Of a stretch of DNA of 64,000 nucleotides, positions 32,789-60,115 are shown piece after piece. The DNA is from Candidatus Lustribacter sp. (lineage in GTDB: Bacteria > Vulcanimicrobiota > Vulcanimicrobiia > Vulcanimicrobiales > Vulcanimicrobiaceae): contig OZ255842.1 in assembly GCA_965277805.1 (NCBI GenBank), forward strand, positions 4,224,001 to 4,288,000, read 5' to 3'. The notes under the pieces were generated by a model, which was not told the origin of the DNA, ran no database searches, and was given only the letters and a program-made list of their open reading frames with translations. Within the stretch, counting starts at the first letter, position 1. The number at the start of each line of letters is the position of its first letter. The position numbers and the translations under genes are program-made.

Positions 32789-32851
32789 GGATTATCGGCA
32801 GCCTTCGCTGCCGCTAATCCTTCGCGTTTGGGTGCTCCGCACCCAAGCCGC
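32789..32851 (+). repeat. Two-hairpin structured element, family B copy 1
   Basis: GGATT-[stem]-AATCC-TTC-GCGTT-[stem]-AGCCGC scaffold, shared with 42153-42200 and 60068-60115. Confidence 0.75.
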
Positions 32852-32856
32852 ACCTT

Positions 32857-32885
32857 GAGAGCCGAAGGGCTCTCTTTCATTTTTT
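32857..32885 (+). terminator. Intrinsic terminator-like hairpin between rpmA and obgE
   Basis: GAGAGCC-GAAG-GGCTCTC followed by TTTCATTTTTT. Confidence 0.6.
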
Positions 32886-32886
32886 G

Positions 32887-34164
32887 ATGCAATTTATCGA
32901 CGAAGCAGCGATCACGCTCGAAGCCGGCAACGGCGGCGACGGCATCATCGCGTGGCGGCGTGAGAAATACGTGCCGAAAGGCGGCCCGGCCGGCGGCGAC
33001 GGCGGACGCGGCGGCGACGTGTTTCTCGAAGCGACGCCCAACGTCGGCACGCTGGTCGATTTCCGTTTCAAGAAAGTCTTCCGCGCCGATTCCGGCAACG
33101 CGGGTTCGCAAAACAACAAGTCGGGCAAAGCCGGCGACGATCTGATCATCCCGGTGCCGGTCGGAACGCTCGTGTATCGCGCGCCGATCGATGCCGAGGG
33201 CGTTGCCGGCGTGGAACGGCTCTTCGCCGACATGAGTGAGCCGATGCAGCGCACGCTCGTCGCGAAAGGCGGCCGCGGCGGTCTCGGCAATCAGCACTAC
33301 GCTACGTCCGCGCGCCAAGCGCCGCACTTCGCGGAAAAAGGCGACAAGGGCGAACGCTGCACGCTGCGTCTCGAATTGAAGCTGCTCGCCGACGCCGGTT
33401 TGATCGGGCTGCCGAACGCGGGCAAGTCGACGCTGCTCTCGGTCGTCTCGGCGGCGCGGCCGAAGATCGCCGACTATCCGTTCACCACGCTCGAACCGCA
33501 ACTCGGCGTCGTGCGCATCGATGAAGAATCGTCGTTCGTTCTCGTCGACGTCCCCGGTTTGATCGAAGGCGCGAGCGAAGGCGCCGGGCTCGGCGACCGT
33601 TTCTTGCGCCACGTCGAGCGCACGCGCGTGCTGATCCACTTGATGGACGGCGCGAAACCGCTCGACGAACTGCTCGCCGACAAAACGATCATCGAAAACG
33701 AACTCGCCGCGTGGAATCCCGCGCTGCCGCACAAGCCGACGATGCTCGTCGTCACCAAACTCGATTTGCCCGACGCGCGCGCGACCTTCGAAGTGTTGCG
33801 CGAACAGTTTTCCGGCGTGCGCGGCATTTCGGCCGCCACCAACGAGGGCGTGCGCGAGCTGATGTATGCGGCGTGGGAAATCATTCGCGCGCTGCCGCCG
33901 CCCGACGTGTCCGCGCCGGAATCCGCCGTGCACGATCTGCGCCCCGACGAACCGTTCGAAATTCGCGTGGAAGACGGCATCTACGTCGTCAGCGGAGATC
34001 GCGTGGAGCGGCTCGCGCAGATGACGGATTTCGAGTCCGACGAAGCTCTGGCGCGCTTCGAGCAGATCCTCTCGAAGATGGGCGTCACGAAGAAGTTGCG
34101 CGAATTGGGCGTGCACGACGGCGATACGGTGCGGATCGCAGGCGTGGAGTTCGACTACAGTTGA
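32887..34164 (+). CDS. obgE: GTPase ObgE/CgtA
   Basis: Gly-rich Obg fold, GLPNAGKST, YPFTTL, DVPG, TKLD, C-terminal OCT domain. Confidence 0.97.
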   Translation: MQFIDEAAITLEAGNGGDGIIAWRREKYVPKGGPAGGDGGRGGDVFLEATPNVGTLVDFRFKKVFRADSGNAGSQNNKSGKAGDDLIIPVPVGTLVYRAPIDAEGVAGVERLFADMSEPMQRTLVAKGGRGGLGNQHYATSARQAPHFAEKGDKGERCTLRLELKLLADAGLIGLPNAGKSTLLSVVSAARPKIADYPFTTLEPQLGVVRIDEESSFVLVDVPGLIEGASEGAGLGDRFLRHVERTRVLIHLMDGAKPLDELLADKTIIENELAAWNPALPHKPTMLVVTKLDLPDARATFEVLREQFSGVRGISAATNEGVRELMYAAWEIIRALPPPDVSAPESAVHDLRPDEPFEIRVEDGIYVVSGDRVERLAQMTDFESDEALARFEQILSKMGVTKKLRELGVHDGDTVRIAGVEFDYS

Positions 34165-34760
34165 GCCTCGGGATCTTCGGCGGCTCGTTCGACCCGGTCC
34201 ACAACGGGCACCTCTTCGTCGCCGAAGCGGTGCGTGAGGCGTGCGGTTTGGAGCGCGTGCTGTTCGTGCCGACGCGTCAAGCAAACCATCGCGCGAATCC
34301 GCTCTCCGCATCGGCACTCGCGCGCGCCGACATGATCCGTCTGGCCATCGCCGCCAACACGGCGTTCGCACTTGATGAAACCGACATGGCCGACGACGCG
34401 ACCGGGTTCACCGCCGATCTTTTGCCGCGTCTCGCCCAACGCTATCCCGCTGAAGAGCTGACGTTCATCGTCGGCGGCGATTCGCTCGTGCACTCGCACT
34501 GGGAGCGGCTCGATGCGATCCTCGACCAGCTCGGCGCATTCGTCATTGCGCCGCGCGGCGACGTCACGCAAACCGAACTCGACGCGGCCCTCGCCGGACT
34601 GGAACCCGTCCGGCGCGCAAAGATCCGCTATCTCGACCTGCCGCTCGTGGCCGAGTCGGCAACGTTGATTCGCGCGCGCTTGGCCGACCGGCGCAGCGTG
34701 CGTTATCTCGTTCCAGAACCGGTCTTCCGCTACATCAAGGAACACGGACTCTATCAATGA
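34161..34760 (+). CDS. nadD: Nicotinate-nucleotide adenylyltransferase
   Basis: GIFGGSFDPVHNGH, FIVGGDS, SATLIR, YLVP..V..YI...LY. TTG start overlapping the obgE stop. Confidence 0.93.
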   Translation: MSLGIFGGSFDPVHNGHLFVAEAVREACGLERVLFVPTRQANHRANPLSASALARADMIRLAIAANTAFALDETDMADDATGFTADLLPRLAQRYPAEELTFIVGGDSLVHSHWERLDAILDQLGAFVIAPRGDVTQTELDAALAGLEPVRRAKIRYLDLPLVAESATLIRARLADRRSVRYLVPEPVFRYIKEHGLYQ

Positions 34761-35980
34761 TCGATGGCGCAATCGGCGGCGTGCCCGCACGCGAACTCGC
34801 CGCTAGCTACGGCACGCCGCTGGTCGTAATCGACACCGAAAGCGTGGATCTCGAGATCGACGCGTACGTGCGCGCGTTCGCATCGCGCGGCATCGCGGTC
34901 GGTTATGCCGCCAAAGCGTTTCTCGTTACGGCGATGGCCGAGCTGCTGGCGGCCACGCCGTTGCGGCTCGACGTGTGCTCGCTCGGTGAGCTGATCACCG
35001 GCGAACGCGGCGGATTCCCCGCCGGCCGCATGTATTTTCACGGCGTCGCGAAGACCGCAGCCGAACTGCGAGCGATTGCCGACGGACGCGTGGCGTTCGG
35101 CGTGATCGATAACGCCGAAGAGATGGAGCGGCTTGCACTCTTGGCGAGCGCGCAAGCGCCGGTCAATGTGATGCTGCGGATCAACACCGGCATCGAAGCG
35201 CACACGCACGAGTTCATTCGCACCGGCGGCGAAAATACGAAGTTCGGTATTCCCGAGCGCGAGGCGCACGACGCGATCCGGCGCATCGCGGCGCTGCCGC
35301 AATTACGGCTGATCGGCCTGCACTCGCACGTCGGCTCGCAGATCGTCGACGTCGAACCGCTGGTCGCCAATCTCAGTGCACTGCTGCCCTACGCCGACGC
35401 CGCGCGCGCGCTCGGACTGCCGGTCGAGGAACTGAATCTGGGCGGCGGCATCGGGATCGAAAACGCGCCCGGCGACCCTCGCCCGATCGACCTCGAGGCC
35501 TTCGCCGAGCGGCTCGCGACCCGGGCTGCCGGCACGCCCTATCGGCTCGCGATCGAACCCGGCCGGGCCCTCGTGGCGCGGGCCGGCAGCCTGCTCTACC
35601 GGGTGATCACGGTCAAACGCCAGGGCGCGCGGCGCTTCGTCGTCGTCGACGGCGGCATGACCGACAACCCCCGGCCGCTGCTCTACGGTGCCCACCACCC
35701 GGCCGACCTCATCGCTTCGGACGCGAATGGCCGCCCGGCCCCCGCGACGCTGGCCGGGCGGTCGTGTGAAAACGACGAGATCGGCGAATACGAGCTCCCC
35801 GAGGACGTCCGCGCCGGCGACTTGGTCGCTATGCGCTATACGGGCGCCTACACGTTCAGCATGTCGAGCAACTACAACCGCTTCGGCAAACCGGCCGTGG
35901 TGTTCGTCCGGGATGGTACGCACCGGCGCGTGGTGCGCGGTGAATCCGAGGAAGAAACGTCGCGCTTCGATCTTGCGTAA
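34757..35980 (+). CDS. lysA: Diaminopimelate decarboxylase
   Basis: YAAKAF, KFG, HSHVGSQI, EPGR, CENDE, GAY..SMSSNYN. Confidence 0.93.
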   Translation: MIDGAIGGVPARELAASYGTPLVVIDTESVDLEIDAYVRAFASRGIAVGYAAKAFLVTAMAELLAATPLRLDVCSLGELITGERGGFPAGRMYFHGVAKTAAELRAIADGRVAFGVIDNAEEMERLALLASAQAPVNVMLRINTGIEAHTHEFIRTGGENTKFGIPEREAHDAIRRIAALPQLRLIGLHSHVGSQIVDVEPLVANLSALLPYADAARALGLPVEELNLGGGIGIENAPGDPRPIDLEAFAERLATRAAGTPYRLAIEPGRALVARAGSLLYRVITVKRQGARRFVVVDGGMTDNPRPLLYGAHHPADLIASDANGRPAPATLAGRSCENDEIGEYELPEDVRAGDLVAMRYTGAYTFSMSSNYNRFGKPAVVFVRDGTHRRVVRGESEEETSRFDLA

Positions 35981-36013
35981 AAGATGACGGCGCAAACAAT
36001 TTTGCACCATTGC

Positions 36014-36043
36014 TTGCGCTGTCTAAGAATCGCCGACTAGAAT
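36014..36043 (+). promoter_or_regulatory. Sigma70-type promoter for maf-mreBCD-mrdA
   Basis: TTGCGC-N18-TAGAAT. The -35 lies in the right arm of an imperfect 15-bp inverted repeat (35986-36023). Confidence 0.5.
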
Positions 36044-36079
36044 CGCAGTATCGCAAACGAACGCACCGATCTCGAGACC

Positions 36080-36670
36080 GTGGGGCTCGCGAGTGCGTCG
36101 CCCCGGCGACGTGAATTGCTGTTATCGCTCGGTCTCGACGTCGAACTCATCCCGACGTCATACGACGAAGTCCCGTTAGCCGGCCGCTCCCCGATTGAGA
36201 CGGCCCTGGTTCATGCGCGGGGCAAAGTCGCCGGCGCGGCGCCGTCGGCCTACCTGACGATCGGGGCGGATACGGTCGTCGACCTCGACGGCCAAACGCT
36301 CGGCAAGCCGCATAGCGACGATCATGCTCGGGAAATGCTGGCCGCGCTCAGCGGCCGCACCCACGAAGTCCACACGGCGTTTGCCCTGCGCGAGCCCGCC
36401 GGCCGCATCGCGGTCGTCGAGGCCGTCAGCACCCGCGTGCGTTTTGCCGAGCTCGACCGGGCCACGATCGACGCCTACGTCGCCAGCGGCGACGGGCGCG
36501 ACAAGGCCGGCTCTTACGGAATCCAGGGCTTCGCCGCAACGCTTGTCGAGCGCATCGACGGCGACTACTTCACCGTGGTGGGCTTTCCGCTCGGCGCCTT
36601 CGCCCGCGCGGTTGCGCGCCTAGGCTTCCGCCTGCTGCCTCGCCCCTCGCTCGCGGGGAACCTCGCGTGA
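36080..36670 (+). CDS. maf: Maf family nucleoside triphosphate pyrophosphatase
   Basis: LASASPRR, GADTVV, GKP, LSGRTH.V, DKAGSYGIQG. Confidence 0.93.
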   Translation: MGLASASPRRRELLLSLGLDVELIPTSYDEVPLAGRSPIETALVHARGKVAGAAPSAYLTIGADTVVDLDGQTLGKPHSDDHAREMLAALSGRTHEVHTAFALREPAGRIAVVEAVSTRVRFAELDRATIDAYVASGDGRDKAGSYGIQGFAATLVERIDGDYFTVVGFPLGAFARAVARLGFRLLPRPSLAGNLA

Positions 36671-37758
36671 GCATTTCGTCCTCGCTGCGGTCGACGATCA
36701 GCCCCGACATCGGCATCGACCTCGGCACCGCCAACACCGTCATCTACGATCGCGATGCCGGCATCCTCGTCAGCGAACCGTCGGTCGTCGCATTTCAACG
36801 CAGCGACCGTTCGGTTGTCGCGGTCGGCAATGCCGCCAAAGTGCTCGACGGCCGCGCGCCCGGCCGCATCGACGTGGTCCGGCCGCTCCGGGGCGGCACG
36901 ATTTCCGATTTCGTCGGCGCGCACACGCTGATCACGACGATGATCGACCGGGCCCTGGCTGCCCGGCCGCGGATCGCGCCGCGCATCATCGCTTGCGTGC
37001 CGGGCTGCGCGACCGACATCGAGTGCAAAGCGATCGAAGAGGCCGTTCACGCGGCCGGTCCCCGCACGACGATCTTCGTGCCGCAGGCCGTTGCCGCGGC
37101 CATCGGTGCCGGGCTTGACGTGACGAGCACCCGCGGCCGCATGGTGATCGACATCGGCGGCGGCACGACCGAGATCGCCGTGCTCGCGCTGAGCGGCATC
37201 GTCGCGATGCATTCGATCAAGATCGGCGGCGACACGTTCGACGCCGCCGTCAGCGCGAAGCTGCGCAACGACGAGCGTTTTTCGGTCGGCATCTTAACGG
37301 CCGAGCGGCTGAAGATCGAACGCGGCTACGCCGGGCGGCCGCCCGGACGCGAGCCGTATTCCGTGTCGGGTATCGACATGAATCTCATGCGTCCCGGACG
37401 ACGCGACGTCGACGAGCGGCTCGTCGGCGAAGCGATGCACGACGCGATCGATGCGATCGTGCGCGCGGCTTGGTCGATCCTTGAAGCGACCCCGCCGGAC
37501 CTCGCCGCCGACTTGATGGAAACCGGTATTACGCTGACCGGCGGCGGCGCGCTGATTCCGGGACTCGCAGGCGAGATAAGTGTCCGCACGAACGTTCCGA
37601 CAACGGTTGCGGACGAACCGCTTCTTGCCGTCGCGCGGGGCGCCGGCGAAATTCTCGCGTCGCCGAGCCTGCTCGAGCACATGCGTCCGCATGCCGACCG
37701 GCTGACGAGGTGGTACCAATCTTTACGTATCGGGATGACAGAAAGCTTTTCGCGGTAG
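36667..37758 (+). CDS. mreB: Rod shape-determining protein MreB (divergent)
   Basis: GIDLGTANT, EPSVVA, DIGGGTTE, AERLKI, LTGGGAL; upstream of mreCD. Confidence 0.88.
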   Translation: MSISSSLRSTISPDIGIDLGTANTVIYDRDAGILVSEPSVVAFQRSDRSVVAVGNAAKVLDGRAPGRIDVVRPLRGGTISDFVGAHTLITTMIDRALAARPRIAPRIIACVPGCATDIECKAIEEAVHAAGPRTTIFVPQAVAAAIGAGLDVTSTRGRMVIDIGGGTTEIAVLALSGIVAMHSIKIGGDTFDAAVSAKLRNDERFSVGILTAERLKIERGYAGRPPGREPYSVSGIDMNLMRPGRRDVDERLVGEAMHDAIDAIVRAAWSILEATPPDLAADLMETGITLTGGGALIPGLAGEISVRTNVPTTVADEPLLAVARGAGEILASPSLLEHMRPHADRLTRWYQSLRIGMTESFSR

Positions 37759-38528
37759 CCGGCGCGATTATCGTCGCCGCACTGCTTCTGCTTCTGCAAC
37801 TCGATTTTACCCGCGCCGGCCGCGCCAGCCCGCTCACCGTCGTCATCACCACCGTTACGGCGTGGGCGCAACTCGCAACGTCGTTCGTCACGAACGGCAC
37901 GCGCGACGGCATCGGAGCGGTCGTCAACGCGCCGCAACTGGCGCGCGAAAACGCGGCTCTGCAAACCAGCGTCGCGCAATTGACCGATGAGAACCGTAAG
38001 CTGACCGAAACGCTCGCTCGCGTTCCCGCCGAAGCAGCGCTCGCGCGCGCGCAGATGAGCTACCCGAACGGCATTCCGGCGAGCGTGATCGGCTTCGATC
38101 CGGAGAACGCGCTGCACGAGATCACGATCGATCGCGGCGCCAAAGATCATCTGCACACCGACGACGGCGTGATGACCGGCGACGGCGTCGTCGGGCGCGT
38201 GGTCGAAGTCGATCCGCTCTCGTCGAAGGTGCTGCTGATCAACGATCCGACCAGCCGGCTCACCGCGCAAGTGCAGCGCGGCCGCTGGTGGGCGATCGCG
38301 GTCGGCACGCTCACGCGCGTCAAACTGCGCTACATCTCGCAGGACGCGAAGCTGCACGTCGGTCAGGAAGTCGTCACCGGCGAAGGCCGCTCGTTTCGCG
38401 CCGGGGTTCCGATCGGCCGCATCCTAACGCTCGAGCCGATGAACGCCGGGGCGCTCGATCAGTCCGCGATCGTCGAGCCGGCGGTGAACCTCTCGGCCCT
38501 CACACGGGTGCTCGTTGTTCAGAAGTAG
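37710..38528 (+). CDS. mreC: Rod shape-determining protein MreC
   Basis: TM helix, coiled coil, ITIDRG, GVVGRV, SKVLLI.D, G.PIG. Confidence 0.9.
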   Translation: MVPIFTYRDDRKLFAVAGAIIVAALLLLLQLDFTRAGRASPLTVVITTVTAWAQLATSFVTNGTRDGIGAVVNAPQLARENAALQTSVAQLTDENRKLTETLARVPAEAALARAQMSYPNGIPASVIGFDPENALHEITIDRGAKDHLHTDDGVMTGDGVVGRVVEVDPLSSKVLLINDPTSRLTAQVQRGRWWAIAVGTLTRVKLRYISQDAKLHVGQEVVTGEGRSFRAGVPIGRILTLEPMNAGALDQSAIVEPAVNLSALTRVLVVQK

Positions 38529-39054
38529 CTATCGGTCGATCGAAATCGTTAGCGGTCCCTCGTTCTGGCGTGCCGCCGGCTGCGTGGCGCTCGGCTTGTT
38601 CGTGCAGACGGTGTTCGCGCCGCTGCTCGTCGTGCGCGGCGGCATTCCGTCGTTCGTCACGATCGCGGTCGTGCTCTACGCGCTGCGTTTGGGTGCCCGG
38701 CGCGGTGCGCTGTTGGGCCTCGTCGCGGGCGTCTTGACCGATGCGGTGGCCGGGACCGGCGGTGCGTGGACGCTCGCGTATACGCTGCTGGCGCTGGTGT
38801 GCGGCGGCATCACGCGCGGCTTTTTTGCCGACGGCGTCGTGCTGCCGAGCTTGTTCGTCGGTGCGGCGGTCATCGTACGCAGCGCACTGTTCTGGTTCAT
38901 CATGTCTACTGAGGGCTATCCGCGCGGCTACGGTGGGGTGCACTTGCACGCTGCGCTCGAATCGGGCGTGCTGACGGCCGTTTACGCGTTCGTCTATCTG
39001 TTATTCCGCTCGCGCTTCGGCGGCGAACCGACCCGCATCGAACGCTACGCGTGA
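38515..39054 (+). CDS. mreD: Rod shape-determining protein MreD
   Basis: Hydrophobic, G...GL.AG.L.D pattern; lies between mreC and mrdA. Start uncertain. Confidence 0.8.
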   Translation: MFRSSYRSIEIVSGPSFWRAAGCVALGLFVQTVFAPLLVVRGGIPSFVTIAVVLYALRLGARRGALLGLVAGVLTDAVAGTGGAWTLAYTLLALVCGGITRGFFADGVVLPSLFVGAAVIVRSALFWFIMSTEGYPRGYGGVHLHAALESGVLTAVYAFVYLLFRSRFGGEPTRIERYA

Positions 39055-40913: not shown

Positions 40914-40953
40914 CGGGCGATTTTTGTGGCCACGTCGAACAATAGCCGTTCCC

Positions 40954-42153
40954 ATGACGACCCTCGAGCAGCAATACGACTACCTCAACGCCGCCGTTTC
41001 CCGTTTGGGAAGCGAAGCCGCATTCGAGGTATTGGGCCGAGCGCGTGCGCTGCAAGAAGCGGGCCGTTCGATCGTACACCTCGAGGTCGGAGAACCGGAC
41101 TTCGACACGCCCGAGCACATCAAGACGGCCGGCAAGCTTGCGATCGATGAGAACTTCACCCACTATGCACCCAACCCGGGCATCATGGAGTTCCGCCGCG
41201 TCATCGCCGATTACGCCACGCAATTTCGCGGACTGAACACGCCGTACGACGCGAACAACGTCGTCGTCGCGCCGGGCGCAAAACAGATTATTTGGAACTT
41301 GCTCTCGGCCGTGCTCGATCCCGGCGATGAGATGCTTTACGCGGATCCGGCGTATCCGACGTACGCGGTGTGCGCATCGTACCTCGGCGCGAAACCCGTG
41401 CCGGTGCGGCTGCTCGAATCCAAAGAGTGGCGCCTCGACCTCGACGAACTGGCCGCCAAAGTTACGCCGCGCACGAAAGTGCTGATCATCAACAGCCCGA
41501 GCAATCCGACCGGTGGCGTGCTCTCGCGCGACGATTTAGCGGCGATCGCCGAGATCGCCGCCAAACACCGCTTCCTCATCCTCACCGACGAGATCTACTG
41601 TCGCCACGTCTACGGGCAGAAGTTCGAATCGATCACGCAATTCGAAGAATTGCGCGATCGCATCATCCTGGTCGACGGTTTCTCGAAAGCCTATGCGATG
41701 ACGGGCTGGCGCTTGGGCTATTGCATCGCGCCGCCGCAAGTCGCAAAAGCTGCGACGCTGATGGCCAACAACACCTACGCGTGCACGTCGACGTTCATCC
41801 AGAAAGCCGGCATCGCCGCGCTGCTGGGTCCGGACGAACCGGTGATCGAGATGCGCGACATCTTCCACAAACGCCGCGACATGGTCATCGCCGGGCTCAA
41901 CGCGATTCCCAACGTCACCGCGTGCATGCCGCCCGGCGCGTTCTACGCGTTTCCGAACATCAGCAAAGTCACTCCGGACGACAAACGCCTGGCGTCGTAC
42001 TTGCTCGAAGAGGCCGGCGTGGCGTTACTCGGCGGTTCGTGCTTCGGCGATGCCGGCGCCGGCTGTCTGCGCATTTCGTACGCGAGCTCGATCGAAAACC
42101 TCGAAGAAGCGCTGCGCCGCATGCGCGTCGCGCTCCCCAAGTTCCCGGGATAG
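40954..42153 (+). CDS. PLP-dependent aminotransferase class I/II (aspartate aminotransferase-like)
   Basis: GEPDF.TP, NSPSNPTG, DEIY, GFSKAYAMTGWRLG. Confidence 0.93.
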   Translation: MTTLEQQYDYLNAAVSRLGSEAAFEVLGRARALQEAGRSIVHLEVGEPDFDTPEHIKTAGKLAIDENFTHYAPNPGIMEFRRVIADYATQFRGLNTPYDANNVVVAPGAKQIIWNLLSAVLDPGDEMLYADPAYPTYAVCASYLGAKPVPVRLLESKEWRLDLDELAAKVTPRTKVLIINSPSNPTGGVLSRDDLAAIAEIAAKHRFLILTDEIYCRHVYGQKFESITQFEELRDRIILVDGFSKAYAMTGWRLGYCIAPPQVAKAATLMANNTYACTSTFIQKAGIAALLGPDEPVIEMRDIFHKRRDMVIAGLNAIPNVTACMPPGAFYAFPNISKVTPDDKRLASYLLEEAGVALLGGSCFGDAGAGCLRISYASSIENLEEALRRMRVALPKFPG

Positions 42154-42200
42154 GATTCACGTTCCGTGAATCCGTTGCGTTTGGGCTACGCCCAAGCCGC
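42153..42200 (+). repeat. Two-hairpin structured element, family B copy 2
   Basis: GGATT-CACG-ttc-CGTG-AATCC-GTT-GCGTT-TGGGC-tac-GCCCA-AGCCGC; fills the gap between convergent genes. Confidence 0.75.
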
Positions 42201-43190
42201 CTACGAAGCCCCCATTGCGCGCTTGACCTGATCGACCGTGGCACGAGCCACAGGACGCACGGCGTCCGCGCCCTGCTTGAGTAATTCGGTCACGGTGGCC
42301 GGATCGGCGGAAAGCTCGGCGTAGCGTTCGCGCAGCGGACGCAGCGTCTCGACGAGGACCTCGACCAGCTCTTTCTTCACGTCGCCGTAACCGCGGACGT
42401 TCGCGAAATGTTCCTCGGCCTGCGCGATCGTCGTGCCGGTGGCGGCGGCGTAAATTGCCAGCAGGTTCGTAATGCCGGGTCGTGCCGGATCGGCGCGCAC
42501 TTCACGGCCGCTGTCGGTCTGCGCCGACATCACCGCTTTTTTGATCTGCTCGGGCGAATCCAGCACGCCCACCGCGTGATACGATCCCGGCGCGCTCTTC
42601 GACATCTTTTTGGTTGGATCGTCGAGACCCATGATTCGCGCGCCCGCCTTCGGTATCGCCGGTTCGGGGATGACGAACACCTCGCCGTAGGTGGAATTGA
42701 AACGCTGCGCGAGATCGCGCGCCAACTCGACGTGCTGCTTTTGATCGTCGCCGACCGGCACGTGCGTCGTGCGATAGAGCAGGATGTCGGCCGCCATCAA
42801 GATCGGGTAGGTGAAGAGACCAACGCGCGCATCGCCGCGCTGCGTCTCGGACTTCTCTTTGTACTGCGTCATGCGCTGCATTTGGCCCATCGCCGCAACG
42901 CACGACAGATACCACGTGAGTTCGCCGTGTTCGCACACGTCGCTCTGCACGAACAGCCGCGACTTGCTCTGATCGATGCCGGCCGCCAGGAGCAGCATCG
43001 CAAATTCGAGCGTGTGGGCGCGCAAGGCGTCCGGATCCTGCGGCACCGTGAGCGCGTGCATGTTGACAAGGCAGAAGATGTTCTCGGCGTCGTCTTGTCC
43101 CGTGACCCACTGTTTGATCGCACCGAAATAATTGCCGATGTGAATAGAGCCGGTGGGCTGGATGCCGGAAAAGACGACGGGACGTGACAT
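42201..43190 (-). CDS. trpS: Tryptophan--tRNA ligase
   Basis: SGIQPTG.IHIGNY, YP.LMAADIL, VPVG.DQ.QH.E, KMSKS. Confidence 0.97.
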   Translation of the reverse strand: MSRPVVFSGIQPTGSIHIGNYFGAIKQWVTGQDDAENIFCLVNMHALTVPQDPDALRAHTLEFAMLLLAAGIDQSKSRLFVQSDVCEHGELTWYLSCVAAMGQMQRMTQYKEKSETQRGDARVGLFTYPILMAADILLYRTTHVPVGDDQKQHVELARDLAQRFNSTYGEVFVIPEPAIPKAGARIMGLDDPTKKMSKSAPGSYHAVGVLDSPEQIKKAVMSAQTDSGREVRADPARPGITNLLAIYAAATGTTIAQAEEHFANVRGYGDVKKELVEVLVETLRPLRERYAELSADPATVTELLKQGADAVRPVARATVDQVKRAMGAS

Positions 43191-43194
43191 GCCG

Positions 43195-48444: not shown

Positions 48445-48484
48445 GTGCGTCATTCTACCGCACTACGCGGCTTGGGACCCGTAA

Positions 48485-48500
48485 TGTTTCCCGGGAAACA
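48485..48500. promoter_or_regulatory. parS-type centromere site
   Basis: Perfect 16-bp palindrome TGTTTCCCGGGAAACA; differs from the common TGTTTCACGTGAAACA at two symmetric positions; near parAB/oriC. Confidence 0.85.
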
Positions 48501-48515
48501 ATTCGGTGGTGGCGG

Positions 48516-48660: not shown

Positions 48661-48677
48661 CGGCGCGATTCAGGCGG

Positions 48678-48693
48678 TGTTTCCCGGGAAACA
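48678..48693. promoter_or_regulatory. parS-type centromere site (second identical copy)
   Basis: TGTTTCCCGGGAAACA, identical to 48485-48500. Confidence 0.85.
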
Positions 48694-48706
48694 TTTTTAG
48701 CTTGGG

Positions 48707-49390: not shown

Positions 49391-49393
49391 TGC

Positions 49394-51262: not shown

Positions 51263-51314
51263 AGCAGCATTACGTTCGCGGGGATCGCGGCGACCACTGC
51301 ATAAATCGCGCAGT

Positions 51315-52265: not shown

Positions 52266-52275
52266 GGAAATGTGA

Positions 52276-53550: not shown

Positions 53551-54526
53551 GGGAGACGCCACGCCGCTGCTTGCGGTCGCGATCGGCGATCCGTCGGGCG
53601 TCGGCACCGAAATCACCGTCAAGGCACTCGCCACCGGCGAGCCGCAGCGGCGCAGCCGCGTCATGCTGATCGGCAATCACGACGGCATCGTCGAGACCGC
53701 GCGCACGGCCGGCCTCGATCTACGGTTCGAGCGCGTCGCGGATGCGGCGCAGGCGGGCGCGTTGCCGGGTGCGGCGATCCCCGTCTACGACGACGGCGCG
53801 GTCACGCTGGGTGACTATACCGTCGGGCAGCCCAGCGCCGCCGGCGGCCGCGCCACGGCGGGCTGGATCGCGCGCAGCGTGGCGTGGGCGGAGGCGGGCG
53901 CGATCGACGGCTTCATCATCGGGCCGGTTGACAACAGCTCGTTCAAGCTGGCCGGCTTCGCCAAATCTCCGCCCGGCATGAACCCGGCCAACTCGTACCT
54001 GCTGCGGATGTCGGGCAAGCTGCGCTTCATTCCGCTGGGCGAGCACGTCATGATGCGCGACGTGCCGCCGATGGTCACCACGGCCAAGGTGCTCGAGGTC
54101 ATCACGCTGATCGGCAAGACCCTCACCGGCTGGGGCGTGTCCAATCCGCGTATCGCCGTGGCCGGGCTGAACCCGCATGCCGCGGGCAGCGAAGATGCCG
54201 AACAGATCGCCCCGGCGGTCGCCGCCGCTCAAGCCGCCGGTCTCGACGTCAAAGGCCCGCTCTCGCCCGATACCGTCTTCCGCCGGGCGCTCCACGGCGA
54301 GTTCGACGTGGTCGTGGCCATGTATCACGACCAGGGCCAGATCGCCATCAAGACGACGGGCTTGGAAGAGGCCTGCGCCATCTTCATCGGGCCGCCCTAC
54401 GTCCGGGTCGGCACGCCCCACGGCTCGGCCCTGGACATCGCCGGCCAGAACAAGGCCCAGTTCGGCACGATGCTGACCGCCCTGAACGCCGCCTCGTCGC
54501 TCGCCGCCGGCCTCGGCCTCTCGTAG
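53537..54526 (+). CDS. PdxA-family decarboxylating dehydrogenase
   Basis: GDPSGVG.E, AGLNPHA, GP.SPDTVF, MYHDQG, HGSALDIAG. Confidence 0.85.
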   Translation: MHDIRGDATPLLAVAIGDPSGVGTEITVKALATGEPQRRSRVMLIGNHDGIVETARTAGLDLRFERVADAAQAGALPGAAIPVYDDGAVTLGDYTVGQPSAAGGRATAGWIARSVAWAEAGAIDGFIIGPVDNSSFKLAGFAKSPPGMNPANSYLLRMSGKLRFIPLGEHVMMRDVPPMVTTAKVLEVITLIGKTLTGWGVSNPRIAVAGLNPHAAGSEDAEQIAPAVAAAQAAGLDVKGPLSPDTVFRRALHGEFDVVVAMYHDQGQIAIKTTGLEEACAIFIGPPYVRVGTPHGSALDIAGQNKAQFGTMLTALNAASSLAAGLGLS

Positions 54527-54544
54527 GCGCGCGATTGGGGGGTG

Positions 54545-54568
54545 TCCCTCAACAGGCTCGGGATGACG
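54545..54568. repeat. REP-like repeat family A copy 3
   Basis: TCCCTCAACAGGCTCGGGATGACG; 22/24 identical to 6668-6691. Confidence 0.7.
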
Positions 54569-54665
54569 TGGGGCACTTCTTAGGGTCGCCCCACGGGGCT
54601 TGGAGGAAAGCCTAACTCGCCAATTAAACGCCCCTAACTATGAGCAGCCCGGCGAGTCCCCGTTC

Positions 54666-54878
54666 GTGATCGTCTGTATGTGCAATGCCCTGGGCGAGCG
54701 CCAAATCTGCGCCCAGCGCGATCGCGGCGTGGCCACCGCCCGCGACGTCTTCAAAGAGCTGCAGTGCGAGCCGCGTTGCGCGACCTGCGTCCCCGAAATC
54801 GAAGACATCTTGTCGGCGAAGGCGTTTCTGCCGGTCTATCAATCCTCGCCGAATTCGCCGGCCGCGGATTGCAGATAA
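54666..54878 (+). CDS. bfd: Bacterioferritin-associated [2Fe-2S] ferredoxin
   Basis: MIVCMCN...CATC (CxC...CxxC) pattern next to bfr. Confidence 0.85.
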   Translation: MIVCMCNALGERQICAQRDRGVATARDVFKELQCEPRCATCVPEIEDILSAKAFLPVYQSSPNSPAADCR

Positions 54879-55321
54879 TTCGGTTCGCCCATCTTTTGGG
54901 CCAGACCGAGTTGCGTTTCGAGATAGTCGATATGCTCTTCGGAGTCAACCAGTATCTTCGTCGCGATCTCCCGGCTGACGTAGTCTTTTTCGCGTTCGAA
55001 CAGCTCGATCGCGGCCGCCGTGTCGTTGCGCGCCACCGTCTCGAGCTTCAAATCCGCGCTCAGCGTTTCGAGCACGTTCTCGCCGATGTGCAGTTTCCCG
55101 AGGTCCTGAAAATTCGGCAGCCCGTCCAACAGCAGAATGCGTTCGGTGAGTTTGTCGGCATGTTTCATCTCGCCGATCGACTCGTGGTAGATCTTTTCGC
55201 CGAGCGCCGCAAAGCCCCAATGCTTGAGCAGCCGCGAGTGCAAGAAGTACTGGTTGATCGCGGTCAACTCGTTGTAGAGCATCTTGTTGAGCGCCGCGAT
55301 GATCTCCGGGGGTGCCTGCAT
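54839..55321 (-). CDS. bfr: Bacterioferritin
   Basis: ELTAINQYFLH, ESIGEMKHAD (heme Met), EEHIDYLE, NYLQ. Confidence 0.97.
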   Translation of the reverse strand: MQAPPEIIAALNKMLYNELTAINQYFLHSRLLKHWGFAALGEKIYHESIGEMKHADKLTERILLLDGLPNFQDLGKLHIGENVLETLSADLKLETVARNDTAAAIELFEREKDYVSREIATKILVDSEEHIDYLETQLGLAQKMGEPNYLQSAAGEFGED

Positions 55322-55371
55322 CTTGAGCCTCCGATTCCTGCGCCGACGCCCTTCGCGAAACGGGCGGCATA

Positions 55372-57252
55372 ATGCTCTGCGTCCGCCGCATCCTGATCGT
55401 CGCGTTTTTTATTCTATCCGCGTGTCTTGCGCACGCCGGCGCCGCCTTTGCCGACTTCGACAACGCACCGCCGCCGGGCATCAATCCCAATACAGTCGGT
55501 ATGCAGCCGCTCGTCGCGCCGTTGCCGGTCGCCACCGCGGCGCCGGGCGAGTCCCCGCTGCGCCCGCGCGAAGATGGTTCGTTCGATGCGATCCCGCTCG
55601 TGCAGGGCAATCAGAAAACGTTCACGCTCGTAGAACGCTCCGCGCCGTGGACGCTCAAGCCCGGACTGACCGTTCTCGCGACGACGTATAATGGCGTCGT
55701 TCCAGGGCCCGTGCTGCAGGTGAACGAGGGCGATCGCGTCGTCATCAATTACACCAACGCTTCGGACACGCCGGACACGATCCACCTGCACGGCATTCAC
55801 GAGATCCCGGTCTCGATGGACGGTGTCGGCGGCATCTCGCAACCGCTCGTGCAGCCGGGCGGCCACTACCAATACCGCTTTACCGCCGACACGCCCGGCA
55901 CGTTCATGTATCACACGCACGGCAACGAAGCGCAGCTCGATAAGGGACTCTACGGCGCAATCGTCGTGCTGCCGCGCCATCCGCGGCCCGAAGAAGCGAA
56001 TACGAAGCACGACTTCGTCGAAATGCTGACCGGCTGGCACATCCAGAGCACGGCGGAAAATCACTGGACGATCAACGGCAAAGAATATCCGGCGACGCAG
56101 CCGATGAACGTAAAAAAGGGCGAGCGCTTCCGCATCCGCTGGATCAGTTTGACCGCGGAAGACACGCACACGATGCACACGCACGGTCACTACCAAGTGA
56201 TCATCGCGCGCGATGCGCAACCGGTCGAGACGCACGACGTAATGGACACGGTGCCGCTCGCGCCGGGCCAGCGCGTCGACGTCGTCGTCACCGCCAACCA
56301 GCAGCCGGGCACGTGGCTCGTGCACTGCCACGTCATGGATCACATCGAAGACGCGGGCGGCATGCCGGCGGGCTTGATCACCGCGATCCAATATGCGGGC
56401 GCGCCCAATCTTCTAACGGCCATGGGCCCGGCGATGTCAGTCGGCATGACGATGCCGGCCGGGCCCAAACCGCTCGACTTCACGACGACCGTGATCCTCG
56501 GCCTGATCGCGGGCTTGACGATCTTCGTCGGCTTGCCGATCGCCCGCACGTCGAAGCTCTCGCCGTACAAAGTCGGCCTGCTCAACGCGCTCGCGATCGG
56601 CATCCTGCTCTACCTCGTCATCGAGATCGCGCAGAACGCGATCGGTCCGATCTCGCAAGCGCTCACGTCGTGGCACAACGGCGTCGGCAGCTTCCCCTAC
56701 GCGCTGCTGGCCGTCTTCGTTGCGGGTCTGCTGATCGGGCTCGTCGGGCTCGGCAGCTTCGCGACGATGCTCACGAAACGCGCTGCCAAACGCGCTGAAA
56801 ACCCGCTGATTCTCTCCGCGATCATCGCGATCGGCATCGGTGCGCACAACTTCGGCGAAGGCCTCGCCATCGGTGCATCTGCCGCATCCGGCGCGACGGC
56901 GATCGCGATCGGCTTGATCGTCGGCTTCGGGCTGCACAACGCAACCGAAGGCTTCGGCGTCGCGGCGCCGCTGATCGGCAAGTACGTGCCCAGCTGGACG
57001 CAAATCGGCCTTGCCGGCCTGATCGCGGGCGGACCGACGTTCCTCGGCACCGTGGTCGGCTACTCGTTCAACTCGCCGGTGCTCTCGGTGCTCTTCCTCT
57101 CGATCGCGATCGGCGCGCTGGTCTTCGTCATCGGCGAATTGTGGTCGGTGCTCAAACACACCGGCCTCACCGCGATGGCCACGACGTGCATGACGATCGG
57201 CTTCCTGATCGCGTTCGCGACCGAACTCTTTCTCGACATGCAAGGCGGTTAG
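55372..57252 (+). CDS. Two-domain multicopper oxidase fused to a ZIP-family metal transporter
   Basis: Signal peptide; Cu motifs IHLHG, YHTH, HTMHTHGH, HCHVMDH; then about 8 TM segments with ZIP motifs HNFGEG and HNATEG; single uninterrupted ORF. Confidence 0.88.
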   Translation: MLCVRRILIVAFFILSACLAHAGAAFADFDNAPPPGINPNTVGMQPLVAPLPVATAAPGESPLRPREDGSFDAIPLVQGNQKTFTLVERSAPWTLKPGLTVLATTYNGVVPGPVLQVNEGDRVVINYTNASDTPDTIHLHGIHEIPVSMDGVGGISQPLVQPGGHYQYRFTADTPGTFMYHTHGNEAQLDKGLYGAIVVLPRHPRPEEANTKHDFVEMLTGWHIQSTAENHWTINGKEYPATQPMNVKKGERFRIRWISLTAEDTHTMHTHGHYQVIIARDAQPVETHDVMDTVPLAPGQRVDVVVTANQQPGTWLVHCHVMDHIEDAGGMPAGLITAIQYAGAPNLLTAMGPAMSVGMTMPAGPKPLDFTTTVILGLIAGLTIFVGLPIARTSKLSPYKVGLLNALAIGILLYLVIEIAQNAIGPISQALTSWHNGVGSFPYALLAVFVAGLLIGLVGLGSFATMLTKRAAKRAENPLILSAIIAIGIGAHNFGEGLAIGASAASGATAIAIGLIVGFGLHNATEGFGVAAPLIGKYVPSWTQIGLAGLIAGGPTFLGTVVGYSFNSPVLSVLFLSIAIGALVFVIGELWSVLKHTGLTAMATTCMTIGFLIAFATELFLDMQGG

Positions 57253-57267
57253 CGCCGCCGCGCGCAC

Positions 57268-58617
57268 TCACTTCCCGATACAGAAGCGGGCGAAAATGCC
57301 GTCGAGGACCGCTTCGGTTGCAACGGCGCCGGTGATCTCGCCGAGCGCGGCGAGCGCGGCCAGCAGTTCGGGCGCGATGAGATCGAGCGCGTCGCCCAGG
57401 TCGAGCGTTTCGCGCGCGCGGGCTAGCGCTTCGCGGGCACGCGACACGGCGCCGGCCTGGCGCGCGGAGGCGAGGTGCGCGCGGGCGAGATCGATGCGTT
57501 CGGTGCCCCAGCCGGCGCGCGCGATCGCGCGGCGCAGCAGATCGAGTGTGGGCTCCGCGAGCACGCTGCCGTGCAGCGCGTCGGCCTCCGGGGCTTCGCG
57601 CGCGTCGTAGCCGGCGCGGCCGAGGTCGCTCTTGTTGAACAGCACCACGCGCGGACGCGTGCGCGTCGCCTCCAGCACCGCGATCGCATCCGCATCGAGA
57701 GGCTGCGCACCGTCGACCACCACTAGCGCCACCGCCGCGCCTTCCAGCGCGCGCCGGGCCCGCTCGATGCCGATCTGCTCGACCGCATCTTCGCTCGCGC
57801 GCATTCCGGCGGTGTCGAGGATGCGCACCGGCACGCCGTCGATGAAGAAGCGCTCCTCGATCACATCGCGCGTCGTGCCCGCCGTCGCCGCCACGATCGC
57901 GCGTTCTTCGCCGAGCAGCGCGTTGAGCAGCGACGACTTGCCCGCGTTGGGCGGGCCCACGATCGCAAGCGACAGGCCCTCGCGCACGAGCCGGCCGCGC
58001 TCCCAGTCCGCAACCAGCGCTGCGAGCGCCGCTTCGCACGCCGCGAGCCGCCCGTCGACGTCCGCGCGGCCGGGCTCGGGCACTTCGTCCGGATAGTCGA
58101 TCGCGCCGGCGAGTTCTTCCAGCACCGTCGCGAGCGGCGCGCTCACCGCGTCGATCGCGGTCCGCAAGCCGCCGGTCAGGTTCGCTTGCGCCGCCCGCGC
58201 GCCGGCCCGCGACTCGGCCTCGATCACGTCGGCAACCGCCTCGGCTGCGCTCAGGTCCAGCTTGCCGTTGAGAAATGCGCGGCGCGTGAATTCGCCCGGT
58301 CCGGCCGCGCGCGCGCCGGCGGCCAAGAGCGCGCGCAGCGTCTCGCGCGCGACCACCGGGCTGCCGTGCACGTGCAGTTCGACGATGTCTTCGCCCGTTA
58401 CGGTGCGTGGCGCGTCCATCGCGAGCGCCAGGCCCCGATCCAGCACGGCGCCGTCGACGTCGAGGATCTCGCCGTAGGTCGCAACGCGGTCGGCGAGCGG
58501 TGCGCGGCTGCGAAAAACGCGCGCCACGATCGTGCGCGCGTCGGGACCGCTACAGCGGACGATCGCGATCGCACCGCGCCCCGGCGGGGTCGCGATCGCC
58601 GCGATCGTCTCAGGCAC
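57268..58617 (-). CDS. mnmE: tRNA modification GTPase
   Basis: TIAAIATPPG, GEFTRRAFLNGK.DL, GPPNAGKSS, GTTRD, DTAG, FCIGK. Confidence 0.97.
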   Translation of the reverse strand: MPETIAAIATPPGRGAIAIVRCSGPDARTIVARVFRSRAPLADRVATYGEILDVDGAVLDRGLALAMDAPRTVTGEDIVELHVHGSPVVARETLRALLAAGARAAGPGEFTRRAFLNGKLDLSAAEAVADVIEAESRAGARAAQANLTGGLRTAIDAVSAPLATVLEELAGAIDYPDEVPEPGRADVDGRLAACEAALAALVADWERGRLVREGLSLAIVGPPNAGKSSLLNALLGEERAIVAATAGTTRDVIEERFFIDGVPVRILDTAGMRASEDAVEQIGIERARRALEGAAVALVVVDGAQPLDADAIAVLEATRTRPRVVLFNKSDLGRAGYDAREAPEADALHGSVLAEPTLDLLRRAIARAGWGTERIDLARAHLASARQAGAVSRAREALARARETLDLGDALDLIAPELLAALAALGEITGAVATEAVLDGIFARFCIGK

Positions 58618-58619
58618 TT

Positions 58620-59204
58620 TTACTTCGGAGAAACGACCAGCCGGCGATCGGGGTCGACGCCTTCCGATTCGGTCCGCACGACCGACGATTCCGATAGCGC
58701 GAGATGCACGATCTTGCGTTCGCTCGGCAACATCGGCTCGAGTTTGATCGCCTTGCCTTCGCGAATCACGCGCTCCAGCGTCGCAAGCGCGAGCGTCTTG
58801 AGCTGGTCCGCTTTACGCGCGCGATAGCCTTCGGCATCGATCGTGTAATAGCGCCGGTTGTTGCGCACGCCGGCGTTGAGGATGTTGTTGAAGATCAGGT
58901 TGAGCGCTTCGAGCGTGTTGCCGTTGCGGCCGATGAGATTCGCCAAGCGCGGCCCGCGAATTTCGAAGTACTCGCCTTCCGAACGCGCGATGTAGACGAT
59001 CGACACATCGTCGATGCCCATCTTCCCGAGCAGCTCTTCGAGCAGCGTGCGCGCAGGTTTCGCTTCGGCCGGCTCGACCGATGCCGCGGTCGTCGAACGC
59101 GGCGGCGCCGGCCGGCGATCGAACCGGCCGCCGCCGCCCGAGCGTCCGCGCCCGCGGTCGCCGTAGTCGCGCCGTCCGGAACCGTGATCGTTATCCATGC
59201 TCAA
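58620..59204 (-). CDS. jag: Jag/EloR/KhpB-like RNA-binding protein (KH + R3H)
   Basis: LIGRNGNTLEAL (KH), ERKIVH (R3H); lies between yidC and mnmE. Confidence 0.88.
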   Translation of the reverse strand: MSMDNDHGSGRRDYGDRGRGRSGGGGRFDRRPAPPRSTTAASVEPAEAKPARTLLEELLGKMGIDDVSIVYIARSEGEYFEIRGPRLANLIGRNGNTLEALNLIFNNILNAGVRNNRRYYTIDAEGYRARKADQLKTLALATLERVIREGKAIKLEPMLPSERKIVHLALSESSVVRTESEGVDPDRRLVVSPK

Positions 59205-59222
59205 TCCTTCGTCCTAAAAAAT

Positions 59223-60065
59223 TTAGCGTTTGCTGCGGCGCGATGCGCGGCCGCTGGTACTGCCGTTCTTACCGCCGGTGATCGCCGCGCGGTTCGAGGT
59301 TTTACCGTTGGTGAGAGGGGCCGCTTCGACCGTTTCGACGGCGGCTTTTTTCGGGCCGATCAAACCGTAGCGGCGATACATGTAGAACTGTTGCGCCATC
59401 GTCAGCACGTTGAGCATCAGCCAGTAGATCAACAGCGCCGATGCCCAGTGATAGCGCCAGCCGAAGTACGCGATCATCGCCGGCGAAACGATCGCCATGA
59501 TCTTCTGCGTCTGCGCTTGCTGCGGATCGCTCGACGGCGGACTGCCGTAACGCACGCTCAAGTACATCGATACGACGTAAAGCACGAGCAGCACGAAGTC
59601 CATTTCGCCGAGGTTGGCGGCGAGCACGCCGTGCGTGAGCTTGTCGATGCCGTCTTGCATCCACAGGAAGTGCGCGGCTTTGAATTCCGCGAGCTGCGAG
59701 TTGATGGCGTAGAACAATCCGAGCAAAATCGGCAACTGGATCAGCATCGGGAAGCAGCCGGCCAGCGGATTGACGCCGTGTTCTTTGTAGAGCGCCATCG
59801 TCGCGGCTTGCAGCTCTTGCGGCTTGCCCTTGAACTCGGCTTGGATCTTCTTGAGCAGCGGCTGCACTTTCTGCATTTCCGCCATCGACTTGAACTGCTG
59901 TTGCGCGAGCGGGAAGAGCGCGAGGCGCACGACCAGCGCCAGCAGCACCATGTCGAGTCCATACGACGGAACCACCGAGTGGATCGCTTTGAGCACGCCC
60001 AGCATCGCGTCGGTAACCGGCTGGAAAAAATTAAAGGCGAACAAGGGGGACTGGGAGCCTTTCAC
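59223..60065 (-). CDS. yidC: Membrane protein insertase YidC (short form)
   Basis: VRL.LFPL, LYKEHGVNPLAGCFPMLIQLPI, LLIYW...N....QQ. Start uncertain. Confidence 0.93.
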   Translation of the reverse strand: MKGSQSPLFAFNFFQPVTDAMLGVLKAIHSVVPSYGLDMVLLALVVRLALFPLAQQQFKSMAEMQKVQPLLKKIQAEFKGKPQELQAATMALYKEHGVNPLAGCFPMLIQLPILLGLFYAINSQLAEFKAAHFLWMQDGIDKLTHGVLAANLGEMDFVLLVLYVVSMYLSVRYGSPPSSDPQQAQTQKIMAIVSPAMIAYFGWRYHWASALLIYWLMLNVLTMAQQFYMYRRYGLIGPKKAAVETVEAAPLTNGKTSNRAAITGGKNGSTSGRASRRSKR

Positions 60066-60067
60066 AG

Positions 60068-60115
60068 GCGGCTCGGCCGAAGGCCGAACGCGAAGGATTC
60101 GCCGACGGCGGATCC
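60068..60115 (-). repeat. Two-hairpin structured element, family B copy 3
   Basis: Minus strand GGATC-CGCC-gtc-GGCG-AATCC-TTC-GCGTT-CGGCC-ttc-GGCCG-AGCCGC between yidD and yidC. Confidence 0.75.

Follow-up and report, generated by a model that had tools for sequence, protein, structure and literature searches.

Background

Repetitive extragenic palindromes (REPs) tagged with GTAG, and the "REPtrons" in which such REPs are united with REP-associated tyrosine transposases (RAYTs), were reportedly described by Nunvar in 2010. In passages of Di Nocera et al. 2013 (PMC3733652), GTAG REPs have stems of 6-13 bp with alternative complementary stem bases and G-T pairs, and are found no more than 20 bp from where convergent or same-direction open reading frames (ORFs) end, the repeats' own ends supplying TAG stops to these ORFs; CGTC REPs, in the same passages, are without a dedicated transposase. 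The present analysis concerns a two-hairpin repeat found at three sites in a stretch of 64,000 nt (hereafter the window) of Candidatus Lustribacter sp. (assembly GCA_965277805.1, contig OZ255842.1, positions 4,224,001-4,288,000 of the forward strand). These three sites probably belong to a palindromic DNA repeat family, dispersed and modular, of the REP type or of the related bacterial interspersed mosaic element (BIME) type, confined to one Eremiobacterota clade.

Each copy is composed, in order, of hairpin 1 (GGATY, a variable top and AATCC), a 3-nt linker and hairpin 2 (GCGTT, a variable stem and AGCCGC). A preliminary description of the window had presented a three-copy element that always follows a TAG stop, and had offered two explanations, a protein-bound RNA motif or a REP-like DNA element spread by an HUH transposase. 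In what follows, G000 is the source genome (5.53 Mb), G001-G007 are relatives, and G023 is a further relative that bears the repeat.

Extent and composition of the repeat family

The scaffold AATCC-N3-GCGTT-N8-30-AGCCGC was found three times in the window, against a mean of 0.01 in 100 dinucleotide-preserving shuffles, none of which reached 3. Minimum free energy RNA folds of copies 1, 2 and 3 are two hairpins, with z-scores of -7.5, -5.0 and -2.5, and the positions, anatomy and folding of all three are as the preliminary description gave them. The number of copies is not: 16 were found in G000 (nhmmer, E < 1e-4, using a profile built from 11 copies found by pattern), and hundreds in relatives. 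The scan by covariance model that had been suggested as a check thus returned further copies; a model built from 14 copies recovers all 16, including the two that were held out, namely copy 1 (E 6e-5) and a degenerate copy at genome position 5214366. Two weak matches to this model, at window 62632-62676 (- strand) and at genome position 4328901, were not counted, the former being without the scaffold on inspection.

Among 40 relatives scanned, all 7 other genomes of the genus carry the repeat, with 3-76 matches each; of the 17 other genera sampled within the family, 1 yielded a match, and the 16 genomes from beyond the family yielded none. Even sampling across the order gave 21 positive genomes out of 121 and 8 genera out of 39, with none among the 44 genomes of genus g30. 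Related genomes hold between 1 and 76 copies. When public genomes were scanned for the exact pattern, at least 117 matching stretches were returned. Among the matches listed (80 of at least 117), nearly all are titled as Eremiobacterota/Vulcanimicrobiota metagenome-assembled genomes (MAGs; Baltobacteraceae, Elarobacter, Lustribacter, Aquilonibacter), and four real copies (L124, L138, L148, L165) are in MAGs labelled Acidoferrum or Limnocylindrales/Limnocylindria, where they could reflect mis-binned contigs or inter-phylum transfer. Public pattern matches L126, L163 and L179 lack the hairpins and were discarded as chance.

No Rfam family reached its gathering score over the whole window, and permissive scans around copies 1 and 2 gave only noise (E of at least 2.7). 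No description of the two-hairpin repeat was found in the literature on palindromic or repetitive extragenic elements of Eremiobacterota. Whether the element belongs to a described Rfam or REP family had been raised in the preliminary description; the correspondence is one of type, through the GTAG REP features given in passages of PMC3733652, and does not extend to the sequence family, for which neither Rfam nor the literature gave a match.

Copies within one genome are near-identical, the mean pairwise identity over the 48-nt core being 0.96 in G004 (21 copies), 0.91 in G003 (19 copies) and 0.94 in G005 (12 copies). Subfamilies are linked in their parts: copies with a "TAG-T" head have TTC or GTC as their linker, and those with a "CTA-GG" head have GTT (in 97 copies the linker is GTC in 34, TTC in 33 and GTT in 11). 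The usual unit is two unlike hairpins head to tail, and the composition is modular. Hairpin 1 is found alone, an 87-nt variant of hairpin 2 exists, hairpin 2 and its linker are tandemly duplicated in G005 (L072), in G023 (L090, L092) and in L114 and L147, and in G005 and several MAGs (L120, L152, L153, L174) a third hairpin module is found repeatedly behind hairpin 2. The coding region that precedes the G000 copy at 4317646 also contains a hairpin-2-like sequence, some 40 nt before that copy (L007; nhmmer E 0.08).

Orthologous sites with and without the repeat

Comparison of orthologous junctions shows that the repeat is gained and lost as DNA. The aminotransferase/trpS junction is without it in G001, G002, G003 and G006, and in G001 and G006 consists of a bare CTAG in which the convergent stops overlap; G004 has hairpin 1 only, and G007 has about 1 kb of additional sequence between the two genes. 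Between rpmA and obg the repeat is present in G000 and G003 only, where it replaces a spacer of about 30 nt, while in five other genomes the rpmA stop is TAA or TGA and the spacer, about 30 nt long, is unrelated. Between yidD and yidC it is present in G000, G003 and G006, with differing stems, and a shorter sequence is found in G002, G004 and G007.

The comparison was extended to 80 loci fetched from G002-G007 and G023, in which 84 copies were found. Both flanks of 57 of these map together in G000, and at 36 of the 57 mapped sites G000 is empty (the gap being at most 36 nt). Filled and empty alleles were compared after refinement in 31 pairs, and in 22 of these the insert follows immediately on TA (10 pairs), TAG (9) or TAGT (3). 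The empty allele is TAA and the filled allele TAG in 8 of the 31, the first G of the repeat completing the codon. Since this G restores TAG after TA, copies are found just after TAG. No target base was lost in 7 pairs, and 1-30 bases of the spacer or gene end were replaced in 24. On the left, the junction usually comes immediately behind the TA of a stop codon, TAA or TAG; on the right it is ragged, and a few to about 30 bases of the old spacer have often been replaced. Where an insert is situated slightly within the gene end, as in a few cases, the ORF is closed by a TGA of hairpin 1 that shares its frame with the TAG. Gene tails upstream of copies are not C-rich and G-poor (skew -0.055, versus -0.045 in 2478 control gene tails), and the skew is alike in filled (-0.070) and empty (-0.075) alleles.

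At one orthologous site G000 carries a second palindromic repeat where G003 and G004 carry the two-hairpin repeat (pairs 22 and 39). This second repeat is the more abundant genome-wide, with 143 sites within 2 mismatches of a 17-base core, and forms several inverted pairs about 47 bp apart that resemble REP doublets forming hairpins (REPINs), e.g. G000 395516/395564, 975292/975338 and 1260730/1260778.

These comparisons bear on the first explanation offered earlier, in which the repeat would be a cis-acting RNA motif of 3' untranslated regions (UTRs) or intercistronic spacers that either binds a protein or influences stability or processing. Selection on RNA structure would maintain the motif locus by locus, and its proximity to the stop would be functional. 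That some orthologous copies differ by pairing-preserving changes favours this explanation. It does not, however, account readily for orthologous sites that are empty in close relatives, including those after rpmA and the aminotransferase gene, for the wide range of copy numbers among related genomes, or for the near-identity of copies within one genome.

Pairing and strand symmetry

Pairing holds for 98.5% of cells in the 14 seed copies, where two-sided changes are seen in 6 pairs. In 97 copies aligned to the model, a procedure that favours the pairing figures somewhat, 98.1% of cells pair and 10 of the 19 pairs (211 cells) have changed on both sides, so that the fixed scaffold with exchanged but still paired stems, first noticed in three copies, holds in the family. 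None of 500 shuffles of the 97 copies was as high, and when the partner was slid by 1-3 columns pairing fell to 31-53%.

Hairpin 1 has a 9-bp stem and usually a 3-nt loop; hairpin 2 has 10 pairs and one bulge, and its earlier description as containing an internal loop is as good as one with a wobble pair and a bulge. The U/G position of hairpin 2 is U-G in 72, U-U in 20, U-A in 2 and U-C in 1 of 95 copies. A triloop closes hairpin 2 in 76 of 91 parsed copies and hairpin 1 in 71 of 91, and it reads TNC on the sense strand in 70 of the 76 and 48 of the 71, respectively. TNC loops on the sense strand are GNA loops on the opposite strand, and the GNA loops pointed out in the window are thus more widespread than was claimed. 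The C-GNA-G triloop forms an unusually stable DNA mini-hairpin.

Both strands of the repeat fold equally well, and stem mismatches in the 97-copy alignment are symmetric (9 of G-U type versus 8 of A-C type), with no G-U excess. Strong covariation, together with the U-G pair that most copies keep in hairpin 2, is what an RNA motif would give; the equal folding of both strands, the symmetry of the mismatches and the lack of an Rfam match (over the window, and around copies 1 and 2) argue against it. A warning follows for similar cases: strong covariation in a repeat family is not evidence of RNA function.

Stop codons and orientation of copies

By crude ORF calls, the in-frame TAG of a convincing ORF is abutted by 59 of 100 copies, a TAA by 6 and a TGA by 3. 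In 11 others the ORF runs into the repeat, mostly ending at an in-frame TGA in hairpin 1, and 21 are without an ORF by the same criteria. Long ORFs of G000 with a high GC content at the third codon position (GC3) end in TGA 1029 times (41%), in TAG 883 times and in TAA 582 times; the TAG share, about 35% of stops, is unusual for a genome of 64% GC. Relative to this usage, the shortage of TGA at copies (3 of 68) has P = 4e-12 for 3 or fewer, and the excess of TAG has P = 3e-18. Avoidance of TGA speaks for a requirement for a DNA sequence (TA) and against a need to follow any stop codon. The TAG is at a fixed offset in 46 of 97 copies, TA with a G overlapping the stem is found in 8 more, and the base before TAG is G in 17 of 97.

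Each copy in the window does lie within 4 nt of the real TAG end of a gene, as had been claimed (rpmA, 1 nt; the aminotransferase gene, a shared G; yidD, 4 nt). Extended to the genome, the rule that the repeat always follows TAG fails: a real TAG stop precedes 9 of the 16 G000 copies, TGA precedes 2, and 5 are antisense or in divergent spacers. Considering neighbours supported by Pfam, 5 of the 16 are between convergent genes, 3, copies 1 and 3 among them, are in sense between same-direction genes, 1 comes after a sense gene and has an unclear gene downstream, 4 are antisense to same-direction genes, 1 is divergent and 2 were left unassigned. Tabulation of orientation and stops, which had been advised, thus gives a dominance of TAG without universality. 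An automatic classification of neighbours, based on ORF length and third-position GC, was dropped after it misplaced copies 1 and 3. TAG has been lost in 4 of the 5 antisense or divergent copies and kept where it is a working stop, which indicates that it is conserved as a stop codon and not as a part that the repeat needs. Two antisense copies, G000 3853107 (L006) and 5244845 (L011), have a similar 5' flank, and in both the ATG of the next gene on the opposite strand is within 2-3 nt of the repeat.

An RNA motif would agree with the location of most copies 0-4 nt from a stop codon, in the sense of the upstream gene. It agrees poorly with the 4 of 16 copies that are antisense to both neighbours and the one in a divergent spacer, and with the avoidance of TGA, which concerns DNA sequence and not stop-codon position. 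Considering also the empty sites, the near-identical copies and the strand-equal folding without G-U excess, the proposal of a protein-bound 3'-UTR motif under local selection is not sustained, and we regard an RNA motif of this kind as improbable.

Candidate mobilising genes

The second of the earlier explanations, a REP-like DNA element with a preference for TAG, stands as to the kind of element (gain and loss, subfamilies, variable copy number, left junction at TA or TAG); its HUH/RAYT transposase was looked for and not found. The Y1/RAYT family PF01797 had no match in the repeat-bearing genomes G000, G003, G004, G005, G006 and G023, two of which are single contigs of 94-95% completeness, while 6 of 14 control genomes matched. 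No association with the repeat was seen in the order sample either: 6 of 121 genomes match (one flagged unpublished), and 1 of these 6, a weak match, also has the repeat. The proposed search for a RAYT or TnpA(Y1) gene accompanied by copies therefore came out negative. No Y1 transposase was found in G000, which holds the REPIN-like second repeat too. In five genomes searched, TnpB (PF07282) and the IS630-type DDE_3 domain (PF13358) were each found in G004 only, with no association with the repeat.

The repeat could still be a true GTAG-type REP moved on single-stranded hairpins by a RAYT, an enzyme of the Y1 HUH class that would be either absent from the assembled sequences or too far diverged to be recognised by the Pfam model. 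The TAG that adjoins hairpin 1 like a tag, the fixed left junction and the C-GNA-G triloops on the opposite strand in most copies are as such a REP would have them, and GTAG REPs are reported, in passages of PMC3733652, to supply TAG stops to flanking ORFs. The PF01797 results in repeat-bearing genomes, controls and the order sample speak against it, as do the scarcity of G before TAG (17 of 97 copies) and the lack of any inverted, REPIN-type pair of the two-hairpin repeat among the copies seen. We give this possibility only a slim chance.

A further alternative is a miniature inverted-repeat transposable element (MITE) of a TA-targeting cut-and-paste transposon, like the Correia elements of Neisseria, with hairpin 1 as its collapsed terminal inverted repeats. 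The target of Correia elements is TA. For the two-hairpin repeat, TA is found at both ends in a subset (copy 2, genome position 451780, and filled/empty pairs 26, 29, 38 and 40), and copies with hairpin 1 only exist. Its left end TAGTGGATT matches exactly 9 bases of the Correia repeat terminus given in a passage of PMC5039591, which could be chance. On the other hand, the right end of the two-hairpin unit is without an inverted repeat, most right junctions are without TA and have variable tails or replacements (target bases being replaced in 24 of 31 pairs), and DDE_3 is absent from 4 of the 5 genomes searched. An autonomous parent was sought in G000 by pairing left-arm 8-mers with their reverse complement. 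This gave 5 pairs within 6 kb, where about 3 are expected by chance (a rough hand estimate), and none whose ends enclose a transposase gene; the best of them (5293313/5295600, separated by 2.3 kb) was rejected because it spans ordinary membrane-protein-like ORFs, as judged by eye. Hairpin-1 copies in G003 and G004 (80 sites) included no pair bracketing a 1-3 kb gene. A MITE origin is accordingly very unlikely in our judgement.

Several observations weigh against a dispersed DNA repeat family as the full account. Some orthologous copies are old and have kept their pairing through two-sided changes (the copy at genome position 5531338 and its G003 ortholog; the yidD-yidC copies of G000 and G006), so that selection on structure after insertion is possible. 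No mobilising gene was found among the families searched (PF01797, PF07282, PF13358), and the case for spread is therefore built from comparative patterns alone; most repeat-bearing genomes are incomplete MAGs (72-97% complete), from which such a gene may be absent. No known transposition chemistry accounts for the ragged right junction. The counts of 59, 6 and 3 stop codons derive from ORF length and third-position GC, by which the short yidD was missed, and Pfam identifies the ORF of at least one "TAG" case, at genome position 1187457, as a shadow ORF.

A proposed model for insertion at stop codons

Copies would be joined in through 2-4 nt of microhomology (TA, TAG or TAGT), the joining agent being either an enzyme or host repair or recombination acting on hairpin-forming DNA. 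A left junction that is fixed and rich in microhomology, together with a ragged right junction, suggests one-ended or repair-mediated copying. Selection would then retain those insertions that leave the flanking genes a stop codon. The inserted hairpins would be transcribed within the 3' UTR or intercistronic spacer, where, by analogy with REPs, they probably protect or delimit the 3' end of the upstream mRNA.

The repeats are probably not themselves intrinsic terminators: a rho-independent terminator is recognised by a GC-rich hairpin followed by a U-run, and a T-rich tail was found in only 4 of 90 copies. Copy 1 has, downstream, a separate conserved terminator-like hairpin of its own. REPs within about 15 nt of a stop codon are reported to lower translation through ribosome stalling (Liang, Rudd and Deutscher, 2015).

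In its strongest form, which we consider doubtful, the model states that the repeat targets stop codons and that no known transposase takes part in copying it in. C-GNA-G mini-hairpins of the opposite strand would form in single-stranded DNA, and a new enzyme or host repair would then join a copy into the TA of TAA or TAG by the 2-4 nt microhomology, rebuilding the upstream TAG and sometimes the convergent stop too. If true, selfish hairpins would have a distinct route by which to spread through compact genomes without harm, and their insertion would steadily supply TAA-to-TAG changes. The filled/empty pairs in any case give an unusually clear view of the arrival of hairpins (left junction on the TA of a stop codon, TAA turned into TAG, ragged right junction, no RAYT found). 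A well-delimited REP-like family and a usable covariance model are added to a phylum known only from metagenomes, and annotators can mask the repeat rather than mistake it for a regulatory RNA.

Gene context of the copies in the window

Coordinates of the three copies and of adjoining features are collected in Table 1. The gene pairs concerned are rpmA followed by obg, the aminotransferase gene convergent with trpS, and yidD followed by yidC.

Table 1. Features of the two-hairpin repeat and its flanks (positions in the window)
Feature	Position	Strand	Remark
TAG stop of rpmA (L27, ORF 32461-32787)	32785..32787	+	1 nt ahead of copy 1
Copy 1, whole repeat	32789..32851	+	
Copy 1, hairpin 1 (long variant)	32789..32820	+	32-nt arm-loop-arm; sequence and fold
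Copy 1, linker TTC (3 nt)	32821..32823	+	
Copy 1, hairpin 2 (GCGTT ... AGCCGC)	32824..32851	+	sequence and fold
Terminator- or attenuator-like hairpin with T-run, upstream of obg	32857..32885	+	separate, outside the repeat; kept in relatives without the repeat
TAG stop of the aminotransferase gene	42151..42153	+	G is the first base of copy 2
Copy 2, whole repeat	42153..42200	+	
Copy 2, hairpin 1	42153..42173	+	sequence and fold
Copy 2, linker GTT	42174..42176	+	
Copy 2, hairpin 2	42177..42200	+	sequence and fold
Stop of convergent trpS (TAG read on the - strand)	42201..42203	-	abuts the 3' end of copy 2
TAG stop of yidD (60120-60329)	60120..60122	-	4 nt ahead of copy 3
Copy 3, whole repeat	60068..60115	-	
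Copy 3, hairpin 1	60095..60115	-	one C-A mismatch; sequence and fold
Copy 3, linker TTC	60092..60094	-	
Copy 3, hairpin 2	60068..60091	-	sequence and fold; listed yidC start (GTG, 60063-60065) 2 nt beyond

Copy 1 is spanned without gaps by a contig of a related strain (DNA run X5, record 19; contigs of four DNA runs were compared). No RNA run containing the locus was found in a search with a 10-kb stretch. The hairpin and T-run before obg are kept in seven same-genus genomes, with or without the repeat, and may act as an attenuator between rpmA and obg. L27, the rpmA product, carries at its N terminus an extension like those that the Prp protease cleaves off; neither rplU nor a prp-like gene adjoins rpmA, from which both are about 0.95 Mb away (L009 3755-4406, genome position about 5.209 Mb), and in G003 a copy of the repeat lies between rplU and prp.

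Because the stop of trpS abuts copy 2, the whole spacer between the aminotransferase gene and trpS is repeat. Copy 3 comes so close to the listed GTG start of yidC that a ribosome-binding site would not fit between them; yidC may in fact begin at a later codon, or its translation may be coupled. Window 57268-62543 holds mnmE, jag, yidC, yidD and rnpA on the - strand and dnaA on the + strand, and the presence of mnmE, jag, rnpA and dnaA indicates that the window spans the origin region. The roughly 75 kb around the origin (genome 4.256-4.329 Mb) hold 4 of the 16 solid copies and both weak matches to the covariance model.

Relation to described repeat systems

Inverted repeats at both ends, a TA duplication and a cognate transposase, the marks of an IS630/Tc1-type MITE, are not combined in the two-hairpin repeat, and TA...TA flanks are seen in a minority of copies. 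Palindrome-associated elements derived from IS200/IS605 insert directly 3' of a short fixed motif, without clear duplication, and have hairpins near their ends. The two-hairpin repeat resembles them in each of these respects, but no TnpA was found for it, TnpB was found in 1 of 5 genomes searched, and its two hairpins are unlike each other. Correia elements, in a passage of PMC5039591, share the terminal bases TAGTGGATT with it, lie like it beside genes and are co-transcribed with them, as the repeat would be; in that passage they measure about 100-150 bp and have 26-bp inverted repeats at both ends, whereas the two-hairpin unit is about 50 bp long and has no matching right end.

CGTC REPs, like the two-hairpin repeat, have no dedicated transposase according to passages of PMC3733652, and C followed by GTC precedes hairpin 2 in 34 of 97 copies. 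They differ in these passages by a terminal CGTC, TGTC or CCTC, by 8-9 bp stems opening with A-T pairs and by a CCA tail, while hairpin 2 opens with GCG and has no CCA tail. The present family bears on the question, raised for CGTC REPs in those passages, of how REP-like repeats without a dedicated transposase spread.

The BIMEs of enterobacteria are likewise mosaics of hairpin modules and short linkers, in which modules occur alone, duplicated or in varied combinations; their REPs alternate in opposite orientation, whereas the modules of the two-hairpin repeat have one orientation and unlike sequences.

The likeness to GTAG REPs is the most extensive. As given in passages of PMC3733652, these are short stem-loops with an unpaired, TAG-containing tag at one end, have subfamilies with alternative complementary stem bases, occur where genes converge or share a direction, at most about 20 bp from the upstream stop, with the repeat end supplying TAG, and in some copies run into ORFs. 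Their palindromic unit size (20-40 bp, a 6-13 bp stem and a small loop) applies to the two-hairpin repeat as well. Differences remain: more than 90% of GTAG REP members have a terminal GTAG or a listed variant, whereas the tag here is NTAG; a RAYT gene is typically flanked by repeats there, and none was found for the two-hairpin repeat; GTAG REPs form inverted dimers, whereas the two unlike hairpins here are arranged head to tail or in tandem only; and GTAG REPs number in the hundreds (more than 100) per genome, against 1-76. The host phylum of the two-hairpin repeat is uncultured and is not named in the passages of PMC3733652 concerned. The closest known systems are thus the GTAG-tagged REP/BIME elements, and the two-hairpin repeat is a new REP-like family in an uncultured phylum, not a new RNA signal.

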